A stretch of DNA of 15,144 nucleotides from Promethearchaeota archaeon (GCA_048938855.1 JBHLLT010000041.1:1-15144), one strand, 5' to 3'. Counted from the first letter of the stretch, positions 3,987 to 13,013 are shown. Translations and numbers: made by a program. The notes: generated from the sequence alone by a model not told the origin.

Positions 3987-4006
3987 TATTATCCATAAGA
4001 TTCTTC

Positions 4007-4077
4007 AAATGAATTTTCATTGAAATTAGATGTTGAATTTACCTTTCCATGAAAAATAAGAAAAAGAAGGGAAAAGA
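4007..4077. repeat. Dispersed intergenic element, A half plus A-rich spacer
   Basis: aattttcattgaaattagatgttgaatttacctttccatgaaaaataagaaaaagaag matches 1089-1146; the spacer aaaaataagaaaaa is also at 12971-12984. Confidence 0.78.
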
Positions 4078-4267: not shown

Positions 4268-5209
4268 TCAAAATATATCAAAAATTTCCTTCCAATCTTC
4301 TTTTTGAGCATAAAATATAGCTTCTCTAAGGTTTTCGAGATACTTTTCGATTTCATTGTCAGAATAATCTTCCAATATTGAATACTGGCTATAAACTCTG
4401 TCAGGTAATATCTTCTTTTTGTCCAAGATGTAAATAGCTTGATTAAAAAATGTTTTCACAGCTTTATCCCAAGCATAAACTTGGATTTTATCGAATATAC
4501 TTTCAACCAAGCGTTCAATTATATACCCTTTTATTGGTTTTCCCCATGTAAAATTCCAGTATTTAATAAGGAGTATAAGTTTAGTTATTTTTCCATTTTG
4601 CTTCTTATTTAATTTAGAGAGTGTTTGTTCTTCTAATTTTGGATTTACCTTTTTAATTCCTCCTACACCATTAGGCTTAACAAGGTACCCGTTGGGTAAT
4701 TCAATAGCGGGAATACAGTCAAATAGTATTGAATTCCCTGGATAATCCATTCTAATTGGGATAGCATGTCCGTATGGGGGATCTTTTAATAATTTCATAT
4801 CTGTTCCATGATAATAATTGAAAGACTTAAGATTTGAATATATTAATTCAAAAAGTAAATCGCCTGTTATCATATCTTGCTCATTAGAATAATTTCTCCA
4901 AATATTCACAGTTTGAACAGTAGTATTTTGAGGACTATCTCTGCAGTAGATAAAGTACAAATCAATATCAAATCGATTCTTAATGAAAATACCTCTATCG
5001 AAAGAGCCTCCATACCAGAATCGTTCCAAAGTGTATATATCTGATGATATAAAGATATTTGACCAAGAAGGCATTTGATATTGAGATATATTCTTTAATG
5101 CATCATAGAATTCATTAGTTTTTCTTCGAAGGAAGGTCTTTTGATTCTCTTTAATAGTTAAAGAATTAATTAATCGTTCCAACCTATTATGAATTTTTTT
5201 TCCTGCCAA
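4268..5209 (-). CDS. SMODS / cGAS-DncV-like (Pol-beta superfamily) nucleotidyltransferase
   Basis: GGSFDRG..DIDL (hG[GS]-xn-DxD), third Asp in FDCIPA, C-lobe VNPK..LILLIKYWN..IKGYIIERL typical of CD-NTase/OAS-like enzymes. TTG start; TTAAATATA about 25-30 nt upstream. Confidence 0.8.
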   Translation of the reverse strand: MAGKKIHNRLERLINSLTIKENQKTFLRRKTNEFYDALKNISQYQMPSWSNIFISSDIYTLERFWYGGSFDRGIFIKNRFDIDLYFIYCRDSPQNTTVQTVNIWRNYSNEQDMITGDLLFELIYSNLKSFNYYHGTDMKLLKDPPYGHAIPIRMDYPGNSILFDCIPAIELPNGYLVKPNGVGGIKKVNPKLEEQTLSKLNKKQNGKITKLILLIKYWNFTWGKPIKGYIIERLVESIFDKIQVYAWDKAVKTFFNQAIYILDKKKILPDRVYSQYSILEDYSDNEIEKYLENLREAIFYAQKEDWKEIFDIF

Positions 5210-5258: not shown

Positions 5259-5351
5259 TTAGAAAATAATGAATGCAAAAAATTCGAGCTCATCAAATTC
5301 TTCCGTCGCTCCATTGTACTCAAAAATACGGATATTTTCATTGTCATTCAT
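5259..5351 (-). pseudogene. 5' fragment of a gelsolin-like gene
   Basis: MNDNENIRIFEYNGATEEFDELE-FFAFIIF*. The first 23 aa are identical to residues 128-150 of the 9926..10951 protein, after which homology stops. Confidence 0.8.
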
Positions 5352-5363
5352 TGATTTTGCCTT
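5281..5363. repeat. 83-bp direct repeat, copy 1
   Basis: 81/83 nt identical to 10500-10582. Confidence 0.97.
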
Positions 5364-6937: not shown

Positions 6938-7732
6938 ATGAGATTAAAGAATAGAAATTATAGAGATTCAAGATGTCTTTGTGTTAAAGAACAGGTTATA
7001 GTGCTAATAATACTTCTTATAATTATAGCAGTATTGGCAAAAATTGAGATAATTATTATATTAGGAATATCATTATTAACAGTAGAGCTAGTAGTGGTTT
7101 ATTATGGAGTTAAAAATAAAACAAAAGAGAATAAATGGGAAAGAGTACCAGAAATCACAGAAGAACCACTTTCTTTAACAGAAACCATAGAAAAACCACC
7201 TTCTTTAACAGAAACCATAGAAAACCAAAAACCAAATTGGCTTTTTAAAATACTCTTATTAGGTGATCCTTCTTCAGGAAAGGAGGATTTAAATGGAAAC
7301 CATTTTGATTTCGATACTAAATTAACTATAGGTGTTGATTTCTTTACAAAGGATATTGTTCTTAATAAAAAAATAATAAGACTCAATCTTTGGGATATGG
7401 ATATTGAGGAGGATAAAAGATTCAGATGTCTAATACCAAGCTACTTTGAAGGGGCCAGTGGGGCAATTATTTTGTATGATATTACAAACTCAAATAGCTT
7501 AAAGCATGTTCCAGAGTGGATTCAAATAATTAGAGAACACGTGGGTGATATTCCAATCTTTTTTATTGGAAATAATATTGATCTTGCCGAATCTCGTAAT
7601 GTCTCAAGAGAGGAAGGAATTAACCTTGTAACAAAATATAATTTAAATGCATTTAGCGAGATATCAACTAAGACTGGTGAGAATGTAGAAGAGATATTTA
7701 ACACTCTTAGTGATATTATAATAAAAAGATAG
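6938..7732 (+). CDS. Membrane-anchored Rab-like small GTPase with degenerate G motifs
   Basis: Hydrophobic N-terminal stretch (VIVLIILLIIIAVLA..IIIILGISLLTVELVVVYYGV). FKILLLGDPSSGKE, TIGVDF, LNLWD, YFEGASGAIILYDIT, GNNIDL, EISTKTGENV. Confidence 0.85.
   Translation: MRLKNRNYRDSRCLCVKEQVIVLIILLIIIAVLAKIEIIIILGISLLTVELVVVYYGVKNKTKENKWERVPEITEEPLSLTETIEKPPSLTETIENQKPNWLFKILLLGDPSSGKEDLNGNHFDFDTKLTIGVDFFTKDIVLNKKIIRLNLWDMDIEEDKRFRCLIPSYFEGASGAIILYDITNSNSLKHVPEWIQIIREHVGDIPIFFIGNNIDLAESRNVSREEGINLVTKYNLNAFSEISTKTGENVEEIFNTLSDIIIKR
7164..7223 (+). repeat. In-frame 30-bp tandem duplication (PLSLTETIEK / PPSLTETIEN)
   Basis: aaccac(t/c)ttctttaacagaaaccatagaaa x2, 29/30 identical. Confidence 0.95.
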
Positions 7733-7811
7733 GAGTGACATTAACTCGGAAGCCCGAAAGCTCTCTACGTACACCCCCACCTTATTAAGCCCGTCTTATA
7801 CGAATGTTTCT

Positions 7812-8408
7812 CTAATCAACCTTATTTCCACATATATGACAAATAGTTTGACCCTTTGGAAGATTAGCACCACAGTGTTTACAATAAGACTCATATTTTA
7901 CATCTTCTTCAATAATTGGTCGCTTGCCTTGTGGTTTACCCTGTATTCCTAGATCTCCAGGCGGACTCGGAAGCTTGAAGATATATGGAAATGGCAGATA
8001 TCCATTATCATCATTATCATCAAAATCTCCTCTAAAAATTTTAGCAATTCTCTCACTCATTCGCTTACAATCTAGGAAAATTAGTCCTAATCTAGCATTT
8101 ATACTTGTAGAAATTGTTAATGCTGCCTCTGGACCGGCAGGAAATGTAAGAAGATACCCATCTGAGCCTTTTACATATAATTGGTCGAATTCGCCAATTT
8201 CCATCTCTTTTATTGAATTTTTAGCTAAGGAGAGCAAAGAAGCAGTCATCGCAGCCACCCTTGTTTCATCTAATCCTTGACGTAAAGCTGAAGCAATTGG
8301 TAAACCATCTATAGTACTAATTAAAGAACCATTGACACCAGGAATCGATCCTAAAAATTTTCTTTTTCTTCTTTTCCTTTTTGCATCATCATCGGCATAA
8401 GGGCCCAT
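7812..8408 (-). CDS. Roadblock/LC7 (MglB-like) protein with basic N-terminus and C-terminal PFPYIFK-proline + zinc-ribbon tail
   Basis: ISTIDGLPIASAL..DETRVAAMTASLLSLA..GEFDQLYVKGSDGYLL..AGPEAAL..LGLIFLD; tail CKHC..CHIC. Confidence 0.9.
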   Translation of the reverse strand: MGPYADDDAKRKRRKRKFLGSIPGVNGSLISTIDGLPIASALRQGLDETRVAAMTASLLSLAKNSIKEMEIGEFDQLYVKGSDGYLLTFPAGPEAALTISTSINARLGLIFLDCKRMSERIAKIFRGDFDDNDDNGYLPFPYIFKLPSPPGDLGIQGKPQGKRPIIEEDVKYESYCKHCGANLPKGQTICHICGNKVD

Positions 8409-8742
8409 AAAATCTACGCTTCTTTTTATTTAGTTTTTCTAAATAATCTTTTGTACAGAATTGTATGTATTGAATATCATTTAAACTTGTTCCTTCCACT
8501 CTTAACTTCAAATGTCTTTTTTTCTTTGATAATTAATTTATATTCAGTACCTAAGATTGGTTAAATAAAATATTGATTGAATTCATTTAATAGGTTTAAA
8601 GCAAAATAATAGTAGTTTTCTAAGCTTTCTAGCAAAAGAATAATGTGAGGAAATTTTAAATACAATTAAATATGTACGGTTTTGTATAATTCTCTAGAGA
8701 AATAAGATATTATTATTAGTTAAGAAGAATTTGTGTTTGAAG

Positions 8743-9273
8743 ATGGTTTATGATGCTTCATATAAAATTATCGTTTTTGGTGAGCCTGGAGTAAAGACTC
8801 AACTAATTCAAAGATTTTTAACTAATTTGTATAAATCAGGTTCAAAAATGACTCCTGGAGTTGATTTTGAAGTTAAAACTCTTATGGTTGATAAATATAG
8901 GGTAAAACTACAAATTTGGGATTTTGGTGGGGAAGAAAGATTTCGATTTTTATTACCAACTTATGTGCGAGGGGCAAATGGGGCTCTATTTGTATACGAT
9001 GTCACAAGTTATAGTTCCTTAGCACACATAGATGATTGGTTAATGGTAATTAGAAGAGAACTTAGACTAGAAGACACACTTCCCATTATAATGGTAGGAG
9101 TAGTATCAGATTTAGACGCAGAACGGCAAATCTCGACAGAAGAAGCAATTAAAATTGCAAAATCTAAAAGTACAGACGGTTTTGCAGAATGTAATCCGAG
9201 AACAGGTGAAAATGTAAAAGAAACCTTCGAAACGTTAACAAGGCTAATGCTTGCTAATTCAGGATTGTTATAA
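8743..9273 (+). CDS. Rab-like small GTPase with degenerate G1/G4/G5
   Basis: YKIIVFGEPGVKT, TPGVDFEVK, KLQIWDFGGEERFRFLLPTYVRGANGALFVYDVT. ATG at 8743 preferred over TTG at 8731. Confidence 0.88.
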   Translation: MVYDASYKIIVFGEPGVKTQLIQRFLTNLYKSGSKMTPGVDFEVKTLMVDKYRVKLQIWDFGGEERFRFLLPTYVRGANGALFVYDVTSYSSLAHIDDWLMVIRRELRLEDTLPIIMVGVVSDLDAERQISTEEAIKIAKSKSTDGFAECNPRTGENVKETFETLTRLMLANSGLL

Positions 9274-9301
9274 CTAAATTATAAACAACTTGGAGTAAAT
9301 T

Positions 9302-9877
9302 ATGTATTGTGGAAATTGTGGTATAGAGCTACCCGATCCTAATCAACAATTTTGTCCGAACTGTGGAATTCCATTAAAATACCAGAATATGATAGATTCT
9401 TTAAAAAAGAATTTCGAAATTATTGCTGGAGCTGTAATTAAAGATTCGCGAATTGTTTATACAACAGATAATTGGGATATTAGTAGAGATATTGACAATC
9501 TATTATCAAATTGGAGAGACAAAGATGCTAAATTCATAATGGTTTCGGGAGTAAAATATTCTATTTTACAAATGGTGCCAGAACGTTTAGTTGCTATCTC
9601 TTTAAAAGGCGAAGGAAGTATCGTGGGTGCAAAAAATGATGATTATATAATTATTCTTCAAGTAAATCACGAGAAAAGTAAAAATGGGAATTATCCGTTT
9701 CCTTACATATTCAAGCCCCCCAGTCCAGCTGGAGATCTAGAATTAGCAGCGCAACCACAGGCCAAAGAATCTATTACCGAACAAGATATTGAGTATGAGA
9801 CCTATTGTAAGCATTGTGGCGCTGAACTCCCAAAAGGACAAACTATTTGTCATGTATGCGGAAATAAAGTCGAATAA
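9302..9877 (+). CDS. Asgard profilin-like domain flanked by an N-terminal zinc ribbon and a C-terminal PFPYIFK-proline + zinc-ribbon tail
   Basis: IVYTTDNWDISRDID and SGVKYSILQMVPERLVAISLKGEGSIV match the Lokiarchaeal profilin pattern (TxNWxIxxD; GxKY..ER..GxG). CGNC..CPNC head, CKHC..CHVC tail. GGAG upstream; 28 nt after the GTPase stop. Confidence 0.8.
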   Translation: MYCGNCGIELPDPNQQFCPNCGIPLKYQNMIDSLKKNFEIIAGAVIKDSRIVYTTDNWDISRDIDNLLSNWRDKDAKFIMVSGVKYSILQMVPERLVAISLKGEGSIVGAKNDDYIIILQVNHEKSKNGNYPFPYIFKPPSPAGDLELAAQPQAKESITEQDIEYETYCKHCGAELPKGQTICHVCGNKVE

Positions 9878-9885
9878 TTTTTTTT
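9878..9885 (+). terminator. Oligo-T archaeal terminator candidate
   Basis: T8 immediately after the profilin stop, between convergent genes. Confidence 0.5.
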
Positions 9886-9925
9886 AAACCTAGAACTACC
9901 TTAAAGGATAAGAAAGAAAAGTGTT

Positions 9926-10951
9926 CTATATACTATCTTGTTTTTTCAGAAGTTCAATTAACTTGATTTTATTAAATGAGAAGATTAACCGAGGAATATA
10001 ATCCTCCAGCAGATAAGAACCATCCTCTACCTCTTCCTTTAACGTGAATAACTTCTCAGAGCCTACATGAGACCCAATTTCCTCAATCTCTTTGTAATAA
10101 TATATTTCATTATTTACTATAATTATTTTTCTCTCATATCCTTCTGGAATATCTATTTTTTTCAAAAGTAAAAGAATTTGCTCATGGGATATGAGCTCAT
10201 CCTCCACCTCCAACCCCTTATACTCTGGCTCTATCTGCTCTGGAGCATAATCTTGTTCTTGTTCTAATCCTATGAACACCCTAAAACCTAATGGCTCAAA
10301 TCCCTCGTTGATTCCAGATACTTTAAACGCAAAAGCATGCTGATCTCGTATACGCTCGGCATTCTTAATCGCAGAAACTCTCATATAAATTGTGGTATCA
10401 ATCCCATACCACACCCACACCCTCTTCCGCTGCGGATCAATAAAAAGCAGAATATATTCCGATCCTAATAATTCATACAACGGAGCCTCATTATCTTCCA
10501 ATTCGAGCTCATCAAATTCTTCCGTTGCTCCATTGTACTCAAAAATACGGATATTTTCATTGTCATTCATTGATTTTACCTTAGTATCCTGATTATTTGG
10601 CTTTTTTTTTAACATGATTTTGAATTCTAAGGGTTCACTACCCTCCTCAATAGGTACTATTTTAAATCCCTTCCCATATTTATTCCGTGCCCATTTATCA
10701 GCAATATATCTCATTCTTGTAGTCGTATTGCTCCCACACCATATCCAAACTCTGTAAAGAAAAGAATCAGCTATAAGTATAATAAAATCTGAATCGAGAA
10801 TTTCATAAAGAGGCATTTTAATTTTAAAGGGTCGAAATTCATGTTCTCGAACAGAATATTTGAAACCTTTTATTTTAAGCGGAATTCCACAATTTGGGCA
10901 ATATCGCTGACTTGGATCCTGTAATTCAGCTCCACAATTTTCACAATACAT
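9926..10951 (-). CDS. Zinc-ribbon + two gelsolin-like domains + unknown C-terminal domain
   Basis: Two internal repeats, PLYEILDSDFIILI..RVWIWCG..TTTRMR..IEEGSEPLEF and PLYELLGSEYILLF..RVWVWYG..TTIYMR..INEGFEPLGF, match the gelsolin LxSxx..hhhWxG..EGxEPxxF pattern. Confidence 0.82.
   Translation of the reverse strand: MYCENCGAELQDPSQRYCPNCGIPLKIKGFKYSVREHEFRPFKIKMPLYEILDSDFIILIADSFLYRVWIWCGSNTTTRMRYIADKWARNKYGKGFKIVPIEEGSEPLEFKIMLKKKPNNQDTKVKSMNDNENIRIFEYNGATEEFDELELEDNEAPLYELLGSEYILLFIDPQRKRVWVWYGIDTTIYMRVSAIKNAERIRDQHAFAFKVSGINEGFEPLGFRVFIGLEQEQDYAPEQIEPEYKGLEVEDELISHEQILLLLKKIDIPEGYERKIIIVNNEIYYYKEIEEIGSHVGSEKLFTLKEEVEDGSYLLEDYIPRLIFSFNKIKLIELLKKQDSI
10500..10582. repeat. 83-bp direct repeat, copy 2 (inside the gelsolin-like gene)
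   Basis: 81/83 nt identical to 5281-5363; spans the internal Met128 codon at 10570. Confidence 0.97.
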
Positions 10952-11097: not shown

Positions 11098-11910
11098 TCA
11101 AATATCAGAATTTAATAATTTCTCAACTTTTTTCCATAAGATCAACATTTCAGGAAGTTCTTTAGTATTCATAATGTGCTTTTTATATTCAGCAAGACTA
11201 AGTACATATTCTTCCTGTTTATCAAGATAATCTTCAAAAGAATCTGTTTCTCCGATGTGATATTTTCTCCACAATTTTTGCTGCTTTTTTAACTTTCTTT
11301 TACCTCTAAATTTCTCTTTTTGAGTCTTGATCTTTCTGTCAATTATCCAAATGAAATGTTCACGTTTCTCTTCTAACATCTCTTTAAAATCAATGTTTAG
11401 TATCAAACACGCTATGTTGAAAAGCATTTTTTCAACATTTTGTCCTGTTTTTAGTGAAATCTCCATCCATGAGGATATATCGTTAATTTCTTTAAATTTT
11501 TCTGCGTGCTCTTTTGATACTTCTCGATTCTCCTCCAAATCTAATTTATTTCCCACTAATAAGATTCGAATATCACCCCTATACTCTTTTACTATTCTAC
11601 ACCACTCAGATAATCTGTTTAAGGTTGTTGTATTAGTTATATCATACATTAATATTACCCCCCCAGATCCTCTAATAAAGCTATCCCACAGTTTTTCAAA
11701 TTCTTTATCTTCAGAAATTATCCAAAATTGTAGCCTTATAATTTTTTCATGAAATTCTACCTCTTTAATAGCGAAATTAACTCCTGTTGGTGAGTTTTTA
11801 TAATACTCAAAAGAGCTATTCAAAAAATTACTTTTTGCTAAGGTTTCTTTCCCTACATCTTTATCAGCAAACAAGCATATTTTAAACAACAGGTATGAAT
11901 CATGATTCAT
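11098..11910 (-). CDS. Rab-like small GTPase with degenerate G1/G3 and a charged helical C-terminal extension
   Basis: FKICLFADKDVGKE, PTGVNF, RLQFWIISED, FIRGSGGVILMYDIT, LVGNKLDL, EISLKTGQNV; ~95-aa Lys/Glu-rich tail. Confidence 0.86.
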   Translation of the reverse strand: MNHDSYLLFKICLFADKDVGKETLAKSNFLNSSFEYYKNSPTGVNFAIKEVEFHEKIIRLQFWIISEDKEFEKLWDSFIRGSGGVILMYDITNTTTLNRLSEWCRIVKEYRGDIRILLVGNKLDLEENREVSKEHAEKFKEINDISSWMEISLKTGQNVEKMLFNIACLILNIDFKEMLEEKREHFIWIIDRKIKTQKEKFRGKRKLKKQQKLWRKYHIGETDSFEDYLDKQEEYVLSLAEYKKHIMNTKELPEMLILWKKVEKLLNSDI

Positions 11911-12227: not shown

Positions 12228-12266
12228 GCTTTCCTCCAACAATTTAGAGTAATGATACTACTAATT

Positions 12267-12358
12267 AAGAAAAAGAAATATAAAAATAATACTCAAGAAC
12301 ATACTCCTTCTTATCTCTTCATCTCAAACCTCTCCAAACACACTTCACTTACCCTCAC
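12267..12358. repeat. Dispersed intergenic element, B half
   Basis: Matches 11006-11067 and 1160-1230. Confidence 0.9.
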
Positions 12359-12372
12359 GCTCTAAGCCTGAT

Positions 12373-12936
12373 TTATGAATTTTTTATAAATCTTACCACA
12401 GTTCCCCAATACTCCGTTTTAATCCCACGCAACAATAAATTTTCTGCTACAGAATTTTTTAACATCGGAAATCCATCACTAGAAATCTTTAAATAGCGTT
12501 CACTTAAAATCTCGGGAAGGTATTGCCTCTCAATTGTAATTTCAGAAACAGACTCTTGTTCCATGAGGGCTATAATTTTCCTGTAAGCACCTCCTTCTGA
12601 TCTTAGATCCGAAAAAATGAGTCCAAGGCTTACATCGTTAGTTGTCGAAATTGCTAATAGAGCATTAGGTCCTGCTGGACGCACTAATAAGTATCCATCT
12701 GAACCTTTAATGTAAAGTTGGTTCAATTCCCCCTTATTCATCTCAATAATCGATTGCCTAGATAAAGAATGTAAGGATGCCATTAGTGCAGATACACGGG
12801 TCTCATCAAATCCTTGAGGAAGGGCCGATGCTATAGGTAAGCCCTCCATACTCACAATTGCTGCTGCTGTCGCCTCTGGAATAGTTGCTAACAGCCTTTT
12901 TAAAATATCATCTAGATTTTCTGAAACTGGATCCAT
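12373..12936 (-). CDS. Roadblock/LC7 (MglB-like) protein with ~75-aa C-terminal extension
   Basis: LDDILKRL..AAAIVSMEGLPIASALP..DETRVSALMASL..GELNQLYIKGSDGYLL..AGPNALL..LGLIF. Confidence 0.9.
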   Translation of the reverse strand: MDPVSENLDDILKRLLATIPEATAAAIVSMEGLPIASALPQGFDETRVSALMASLHSLSRQSIIEMNKGELNQLYIKGSDGYLLVRPAGPNALLAISTTNDVSLGLIFSDLRSEGGAYRKIIALMEQESVSEITIERQYLPEILSERYLKISSDGFPMLKNSVAENLLLRGIKTEYWGTVVRFIKNS

Positions 12937-12970
12937 GGATTAGCAATATGAATATGTTCTAATTATTATA

Positions 12971-13013
12971 AAAATAAGAAAAAAGAATTAAAAAACTTGC
13001 TCTAGAACATACT
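12971..13013. repeat. Dispersed intergenic element, degenerate spacer + B half
   Basis: aagaaaaaagaattaaaaaacttgctctagaacatact versus aagaaaaagaaatataaaaataatactcaagaacatact (12267-12305); tctcttcatct also recurs just downstream. Confidence 0.55.

Follow-up and report, generated by a model that had tools for sequence, protein, structure and literature searches.

A portable zinc-ribbon tail on spare copies of actin and GTPase regulators in a Promethearchaeota archaeon

Why do a roadblock, a profilin, and a gelsolin gene in one archaeal genome share their end sequences? The question is raised by positions 7812-10951 of a 15,144-nt stretch of DNA, hereafter the window, from a Promethearchaeota archaeon (GCA_048938855.1 JBHLLT010000041.1:1-15144). 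A first-pass annotation had described a 60-amino-acid (aa) tail shared by the roadblock and the profilin and a 26-aa head shared by the profilin and the gelsolin, and had proposed a portable tag system for GTPase and actin regulators. The present analysis supports a portable, selected tag. The three genes are accessory chimeras, in which spare copies of core actin and GTPase regulators carry portable end modules. The relevant features are as follows.

7812..8408, minus: roadblock chimera, 198 aa (short basic N-terminal leader, core-roadblock copy, acidic linker, tail)
7815..7994, minus: tail copy 1 (PFPYIF-proline motif, spacer, C4 zinc ribbon with its first Cys at 7883)
8352..8408, minus: mobile N-terminal leader, PY-x(n)-KRKRR, found also on other roadblocks and on unrelated hosts in relatives
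8731..9273, plus: Rab-like GTPase, P-loop shortened (GEPGVKT), preceding the profilin chimera
9302..9877, plus: profilin chimera, 191 aa (head, profilin core without its C-terminal helix, tail)
9302..9379, plus: head copy 1 (26-aa N-terminal C4 zinc ribbon, PF13240-like)
9695..9874, plus: tail copy 2 (composite, see below)
9926..10951, minus: gelsolin chimera, 341 aa (head, additional gelsolin repeat, then a copy of nearly all of core gene C47:9361)
10874..10951, minus: head copy 2, the N-terminus of the gelsolin chimera

The identities first reported for these tags are exact and gap-free on recount. The C-terminal 60 aa of the roadblock and of the profilin agree at 42/60 positions (44/64 when four residues further upstream are added), and the N-terminal 26 aa of the profilin and of the gelsolin agree at 20/26, with the likeness ending at residue 26. 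At the DNA level, the tail and head pairs are inverted repeats of 194 and 78 nt, each at 74%; no other in the window is as long. The synonymous excess that had been claimed is also present: the tails differ at 25 of 38 synonymous and 21 of 142 non-synonymous sites (synonymous divergence, dS, 1.53; non-synonymous divergence, dN, 0.17), and the heads have a dN of 0.15 with saturated synonymous sites. The tail match is not a product of chance, because tail against tail yields a BLASTP E-value of ~7e-31, compared to ~1e-5 for the next match in the genome, which is to generic zinc ribbons. The full tail occurs in only two places in this genome. No inversion between the inverted tag copies was seen in contigs from four DNA runs; the same contigs contain a few joints of GTPase or gelsolin pieces to a tail, which possibly stem from other organisms and are not relied on here.

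The labels assigned to the three cores hold as well. The roadblock core matches PF03259 (E-value 8.8e-15) from profile position 8 to 90 of 91, i.e., over the whole domain, and is related at 66% to the core roadblock of the same genome (C34:349466). The profilin core is related at 64% to the resident core profilin (C31:14795) and is homologous to the solved Asgard profilins (E-values 2e-8 to 6e-6 overall, and 2e-8 to 9e-7 for 7PBH, 5ZZA, and 5YED), with LokiProfilin1 as the best, albeit weak, fold match (E-value 3.5e-3). Unlike the solved proteins, it carries two zinc ribbons and lacks the C-terminal helix, ending after the last strand; this helix is present in all sequences of the parent gene and missing from the profilins P0001, P0002, P0021, and P0036. 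Both ribbons are confident in the structure model of the chimera, which is unsure at residues 81-103 and 134-162 (core, and across the motif). The notion that the proline motif stands in for the lost helix is unsupported, with a predicted local distance difference test score under 50 in a model too weak to exclude it. The gelsolin chimera has two repeats, each matching the resident genes C47:9361 (one gelsolin repeat plus a C-terminal domain) and C44:2610. Its core is homologous to the Asgard gelsolins ProGel, 1DGelX, and 2DGel (PMC7444086). In contrast to the 2DGel described there, it appears to be a recent fusion of a head, an extra repeat, and a core-gene copy; since a single gene of its own genome, with one repeat, is the closest match for both, the sequence suggests a separate fusion and not an orthologue of the described 2DGels. 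The cores are not the ordinary regulators for which they had been taken but spare, often clipped copies of core genes.

Beyond the window, the tail is a module of constant layout. A profile search recovers 132 carrier proteins with the proline motif, all with the first two finger Cys invariant. The order is always acidic patch, PYIFKPP-type motif, spacer, zinc finger, and stop codon, and the motif-to-Cys spacing is 34-36 in 32 of the 34 tails measured. The finger is mostly C4 and, in a subgroup, C2HC, with motif and spacing unchanged between the two types; judging from its residues, it probably binds zinc. Ribbons of the PF13240 type, CxxC-x(9-11)-CxxC, score 47.4 bits in the profilin and 27.6 bits in the gelsolin (cut-off 25), and the roadblock tail falls just under at 22.3. 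The profiles of PF13240 (Zn_Ribbon_1) and the DZR family PF12773 match the head and the C4-type tail, and both tags are predicted by modeling to fold as small ribbons. The tail differs from these families in adding the acidic-PYIFKPP motif at a fixed distance, in being confined to two genera, and in having a finger that can be swapped for C2HC. No Pfam family covers the tail motif, and a search of the ESM Atlas matched the tail to generic zinc ribbons only, with no match for a host family of undefined kind. A literature search that covered few subscription papers found no description of a motif-plus-finger tail, its host bias, or its strain-level exchange.

The tail is present in 36 of 134 other genomes of the family, belonging to 2 of 13 genera, and was not found in the other families sampled across the phylum. 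The family probably belongs to Promethearchaeia, i.e., Lokiarchaeia; recorded phylum names clash with genome kinship, and the distribution counts were made without them. One locus, L034, is a 3.4-kb contig in a Patescibacteria bin and is probably misbinned. Three C-termini (L017:213-1481, L086:881-2683, and L095:4781-6304) have a reversed order, in which a zinc ribbon is followed by an acidic patch and a PFIFKPP motif with a glycine run; they are a possible permuted relative or source of the tail.

The proteins that carry the tail are not a random set. For 111 of 132 carriers, the host part matches a resident gene of the genome to which the window belongs. Prominent among the few dominant donors is the core roadblock, with 28 segments; the others are the core profilin, three genes of the gelsolin family, a longin-like gene, a receiver protein, and GTPases of Rab- or MglA-like type. 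When the count is restricted to the 112 carriers with a host part of at least 60 aa, 87 (78%) fall into six families (roadblock, gelsolin, profilin, small GTPase, receiver, and longin-like) that make up ~3.9% of genes. A Pfam tally of the carriers gives 28 roadblock, 11 Ras, 7 receiver, and 5 gelsolin matches. Membrane helices occur in 5 of 128 carriers versus 22% of the genome, and no metabolic enzymes are found among the hosts. The hosts are often clipped copies, and of six tagged Rab-like proteins inspected, three have no normal P-loop. Fragments of PAN or of a CDC48-like N-domain are found among the hosts as well. A conserved 214-aa protein of no known family with a terminal zinc ribbon (C6:90512-91156, own genome) is the donor for ~10 tagged chimeras; it adjoins three genes with JAB/MPN-like starts, for which this is a candidate identity only.

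Portability, as first proposed, is borne out by the presence of the same tail on all of these carriers and by its phylogeny. The tail tree contains 59 host-class changes among 108 tails, where the least possible number is 11 and shuffling gives 74.5; the starred branches alone force 9 changes in gelsolins, 7 in the main roadblock, and 10 in longin-like hosts. Junctions lie at many positions inside a single donor gene. At locus L089, a syntenic gene of 1082 aa that is conserved apart from this contains a tail in frame at mid-gene, flanked by 12/13-bp direct repeats compatible with microhomology or target duplication. Relic ribbon ends sit behind the stop codon of newer tails, and single tagged genes have inserted into syntenic core regions.

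The exchange can be followed between strains at the window itself. In a relative at 94.5% identity, gelsolin and roadblock are present, and the pair of Rab-like GTPase and profilin chimera is absent; these two genes move together, since L031 has them in the same order. At the spot of the missing pair lies a host-less tail end, a relic. The window profilin resembles its L031 orthologue as far as the zinc ribbon and, from there on, the relic of the relative; its dS is 0.44 in the tail versus 0.08 in the core (Fisher p 0.002). Since the last codons and the downstream DNA match the relic and the remainder matches a different donor, the join is placed inside the zinc ribbon, and the sequence is read as a crossover inside conserved ribbon DNA. 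In two further genomes, L081:3575-5029 (GTPase-module-tail) and L157:94-2277 (head-profilin-module) lie directly behind an apparent ribosomal protein S11 gene, the 3′ side of which is a possible second landing site.

The claim that the tags are selected at the protein level stands for long time spans; for short ones, selection is weak or unclear. Over long times, dN is 0.24 for the motif, 0.31 for the ribbon, and 0.76 for the spacer, with dS ~1.5 or saturated, and since the hosts are biased and the dN of motif and finger is this far below dS, neither random hosts nor a dN/dS near 1 describes the long-term record. Of the full tails in the DNA examined, 40 of 43 have no internal stop and 42 of 43 end within two codons of a stop. 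Because no untagged master copy of the tail was found, the long-term selection acted on chimeras. Close orthologues, in contrast, exhibit weak or no purifying selection, and relics are common. The tags have a birth-and-death history in which the module itself is selected.

For the head, the case for a mobile tag is weaker. It is one subtype of a PF13240-like ribbon that occurs at the ends of dozens of proteins in its own genome, core genes for a Rab-like GTPase and an actin-like protein included. The close subtype opens profilin, gelsolin, and roadblock chimeras, while distant forms open common membrane proteins and a conserved soluble family throughout the Loki family. This head begins 4 of the 132 tail carriers, and both tags are found on the window profilin and on P0004/P0005; elsewhere, the head-profilin unit has another C-terminal module or nothing (P0175, P0177, L157). 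Head genes often adjoin tail genes (L033, L041). A predicted complex of head and tail scored 0.00, which is no answer and is evidence for neither side. At least three further end modules exist, namely the basic leader of the window roadblock, a 60-aa C-terminal module on a second roadblock, and a second head type. The own-genome locus C34:41952-43472 encodes a 506-aa actin-like protein with two zinc ribbons near its C-terminus, one of them head-like. A conserved Rab-like GTPase with a long tail (C81:18169) was rejected as the tail donor, as its terminal ribbon is present and the motif is absent.

The genes stand in an unusual setting, which includes the following additional features.

7743..7806, minus: decayed, GC-rich copy of the 23S ribosomal RNA (rRNA) 3′ end, directly after the roadblock stop codon
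11001..11080, minus: decayed 23S rRNA trailer copy, with further copies at 12248-12371 and 1075-1228
86-121, 3996-4068, and 12960-13013, minus: shorter 23S trailer pieces
12373..12936, minus: second roadblock copy, ending in another mobile module of ~60 aa (12376-12561)
5281..5363, minus: 98% copy of 83 bp of the gelsolin gene (10500-10582, where its second part starts internally), orphan, 5.2 kb off

The window is an accretion island marked by 23S rRNA-end copies. These copies separate blocks of genes, all run in one direction, and continue on the adjoining contig; the 23S gene itself is not assembled beside the window. Genus-wide, they punctuate variable gene arrays behind the true 23S gene (L138-L153). 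A search of the window with Rfam gave no match, and the 23S origin of the repeats was recognized through L099; there, ~270 nt are inserted into the 23S rRNA of the genus, close to model position 2882 (L099:100-370). Of the 16 arrays read, only 2 hold a tail gene and 2 a head chimera, so they represent one of several landing sites. Their lists of open reading frames show no conspicuous integrase. Tandem gene accretion at the 3′ ends of transfer RNA (tRNA) and transfer-messenger RNA (tmRNA) genes is known, as is homology-facilitated illegitimate recombination. The arrays resemble tRNA/tmRNA accretion in that gene blocks are divided by same-direction, 5′-truncated copies of the end of a stable-RNA gene; they differ in that the anchor is the 23S rRNA end, and the likeness concerns the setting of the tags and not the tags themselves.

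The orphan gelsolin copy is a trace of recent piecemeal rearrangement. The module at 12376-12561 (minus) has no Pfam match and is single-copy in its own genome; in relatives it is joined to roadblock, profilin, GTPase, and longin-like copies. Three Rab-like GTPases of the window have altered P-loops (6938-7732, 8731-9273, and 11098-11910), the first with an N-terminal hydrophobic segment and a 30-bp tandem repeat. A CD-NTase-like gene at 4268-5209 (minus; PADLOC cyclase E-value 2e-16) has no obvious effector, and a 66% homologue lies at L039:3008-3913, near a tagged MglA-like GTPase.

The account favored here, with confidence slightly above even, combines the joining of tags by microhomology and crossover with the docking of carriers as competitors or modulators of their parents. 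A tag would first reach a new host by illegitimate, microhomology-type recombination, and its conserved DNA could then serve as a crossover site for the swapping of whole host genes, chiefly in accretion hotspots such as the 23S array. The tail would dock at two points, through a zinc finger and, ~35 residues away, a disordered acidic-aromatic-proline motif, and would thereby lead every carrier to the same cytosolic partner or site in the actin/GTPase network. Because they are often truncated or catalytically damaged, the carriers would most likely be tethered competitors or modulators of the intact parents and not full regulators. The head may be a second, more generic address label derived from the common Loki terminal zinc ribbons.

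Several observations weigh against this account. About one fifth of the tail copies in the loci are relics or broken, and between close orthologues the roadblock tail has 9 non-synonymous and 1 synonymous change (not significant) and the cores have dN/dS values of 0.3-1.2, with ~1.2 for the profilin core. Many near-complete genomes of the genus have no tail match at all, so the tail is accessory and dispensable. AlphaFold gives order to the ribbons only, with the motif and part of the clipped profilin at low confidence. The tail tree is weakly resolved, with 64 columns and a bootstrap that has not settled, and the host bias could partly mirror multi-copy, easily recombined genes. Of the tag system first proposed, portability, conservation, and non-random hosts are upheld; the common partner stays a prediction.

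The most serious alternative, although unlikely, is that the tags persist as a recombination anchor and a harmless or stabilizing cap, the chimeras being short-lived products of birth and death with no common partner. It would account for the patchy presence among genomes, the relic and broken copies, the weak selection in close pairs, the truncated hosts and varied junctions, and the location in accretion islands. It accords poorly with a dS near saturation and a low motif dN when no untagged master copy turned up from which the tails could inherit their conservation, with the persistence of a disordered motif and a spacer length across the change of finger type, with a likeness that ends at the stop codon, and with strongly biased hosts from which metabolic enzymes are absent. 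Rickettsia palindromic elements and coding miniature inverted-repeat transposable elements are short repeats found in frame within unrelated genes. The tail shares this property, in one case within a conserved gene. Its identity as such a repeat was rejected, as it has no palindrome, folds no better than shuffles (z −0.33 and 0.65), and is conserved at the protein level; no common DNA 3′ of the stop was found in ~30 loci.

In SOCS-box and F-box adaptors, as in other promiscuous eukaryotic modules, a short constant module is placed on many signaling domains, including small GTPases. Ubiquitin-binding NZF/RanBP2 fingers are characterized by a Trp ahead of the first Cys and a Thr-Phe behind the second. 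It is improbable that the tail acts in such an adaptor-like manner, recruiting a ubiquitin-type or protease machine while the host domain selects an actin, roadblock, or GTPase substrate. The constant C-terminal module on variable binding domains would suit this role, although the likeness is one of layout only, with no sequence or fold link, and so would the hosts that are PAN or CDC48-like N-domain pieces. Ubiquitin machinery is encoded by Asgards, according to a survey of their signature proteins (Liu et al., 10.1101/2020.10.19.343400). However, no ligase or protease neighbor recurs in the loci read, and the tail was rejected as an NZF/RanBP2 finger, given that its consensus, Y-CKHC-GA, is without the NZF motif and the ribbon lacks the Thr-Phe pair.

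Very improbable is a defensive role, in which the chimeras serve as bait, imitating core cytoskeletal or GTPase proteins that viruses or competitors attack, and the tail reports or sequesters. The variable islands and the clipped, fast-changing hosts, such as the profilin core, are in line with it, as is the CD-NTase-like gene in the same array and near the tagged GTPase of L039; yet none of the carriers has an effector domain, and the cyclase link amounts to two cases in hotspots that gather all kinds of genes. Least credible is the literal daisy chain of the first-pass annotation, in which head binds tail to join roadblock, profilin, and gelsolin: the doubly tagged profilins and the neighboring head and tail genes would fit, but this head opens so few tail carriers, the head-profilin unit takes other C-termini or none, and the trio is local and unstable, not being retained in the 94.5% relative.

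The portable, selected tag is best placed against what is already described for Asgards. Lineage-specific shuffling of domains has been inferred from the architectures of Asgard signature proteins by Liu et al. (10.1101/2020.10.19.343400). The tail carriers are similar to the narrow multidomain architectures of roadblock/longin, GTPase, and actin-regulator domains reported there; they differ in that no shared tag is named in the passages searched, whereas a constant module, junctions, relics, and strain-level swaps are visible here. Thus, ribbons of a promiscuous family and, as a published inference, Asgard domain shuffling were known, and the tail, its bias, and its strain-level exchange appear new against the literature searched.

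The repeated grafting of the tail, and of the shorter head, amounts to domain shuffling of the eukaryotic kind that is still going on in a prokaryote. The shuffling of Asgard signature proteins, formerly deduced from static architectures, can be watched between strains, with modules, named donor genes, junctions, relics, and landing sites in view. When profilins, gelsolins, roadblocks, and small GTPases are tallied in these genomes, clipped accessory chimeras enter the count, and they are not to be taken for intact eukaryote-like regulators. If the tail has a receptor, it is probably a new hub protein of the Loki actin/GTPase network, which could be found with a 60-aa bait. More tentatively, and rather doubtfully at present, the family may run a modular tagging system for its actin and GTPase network, built from a few end modules such as the tail, the heads, the basic leader, and the 60-aa C-terminal module, each with a dedicated receptor, in which recombination at the tags yields new regulator-tag combinations under selection. 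If so, it would be a present-day parallel, in a prokaryote, to the shuffling of promiscuous domains from which eukaryotic signaling proteins were built.

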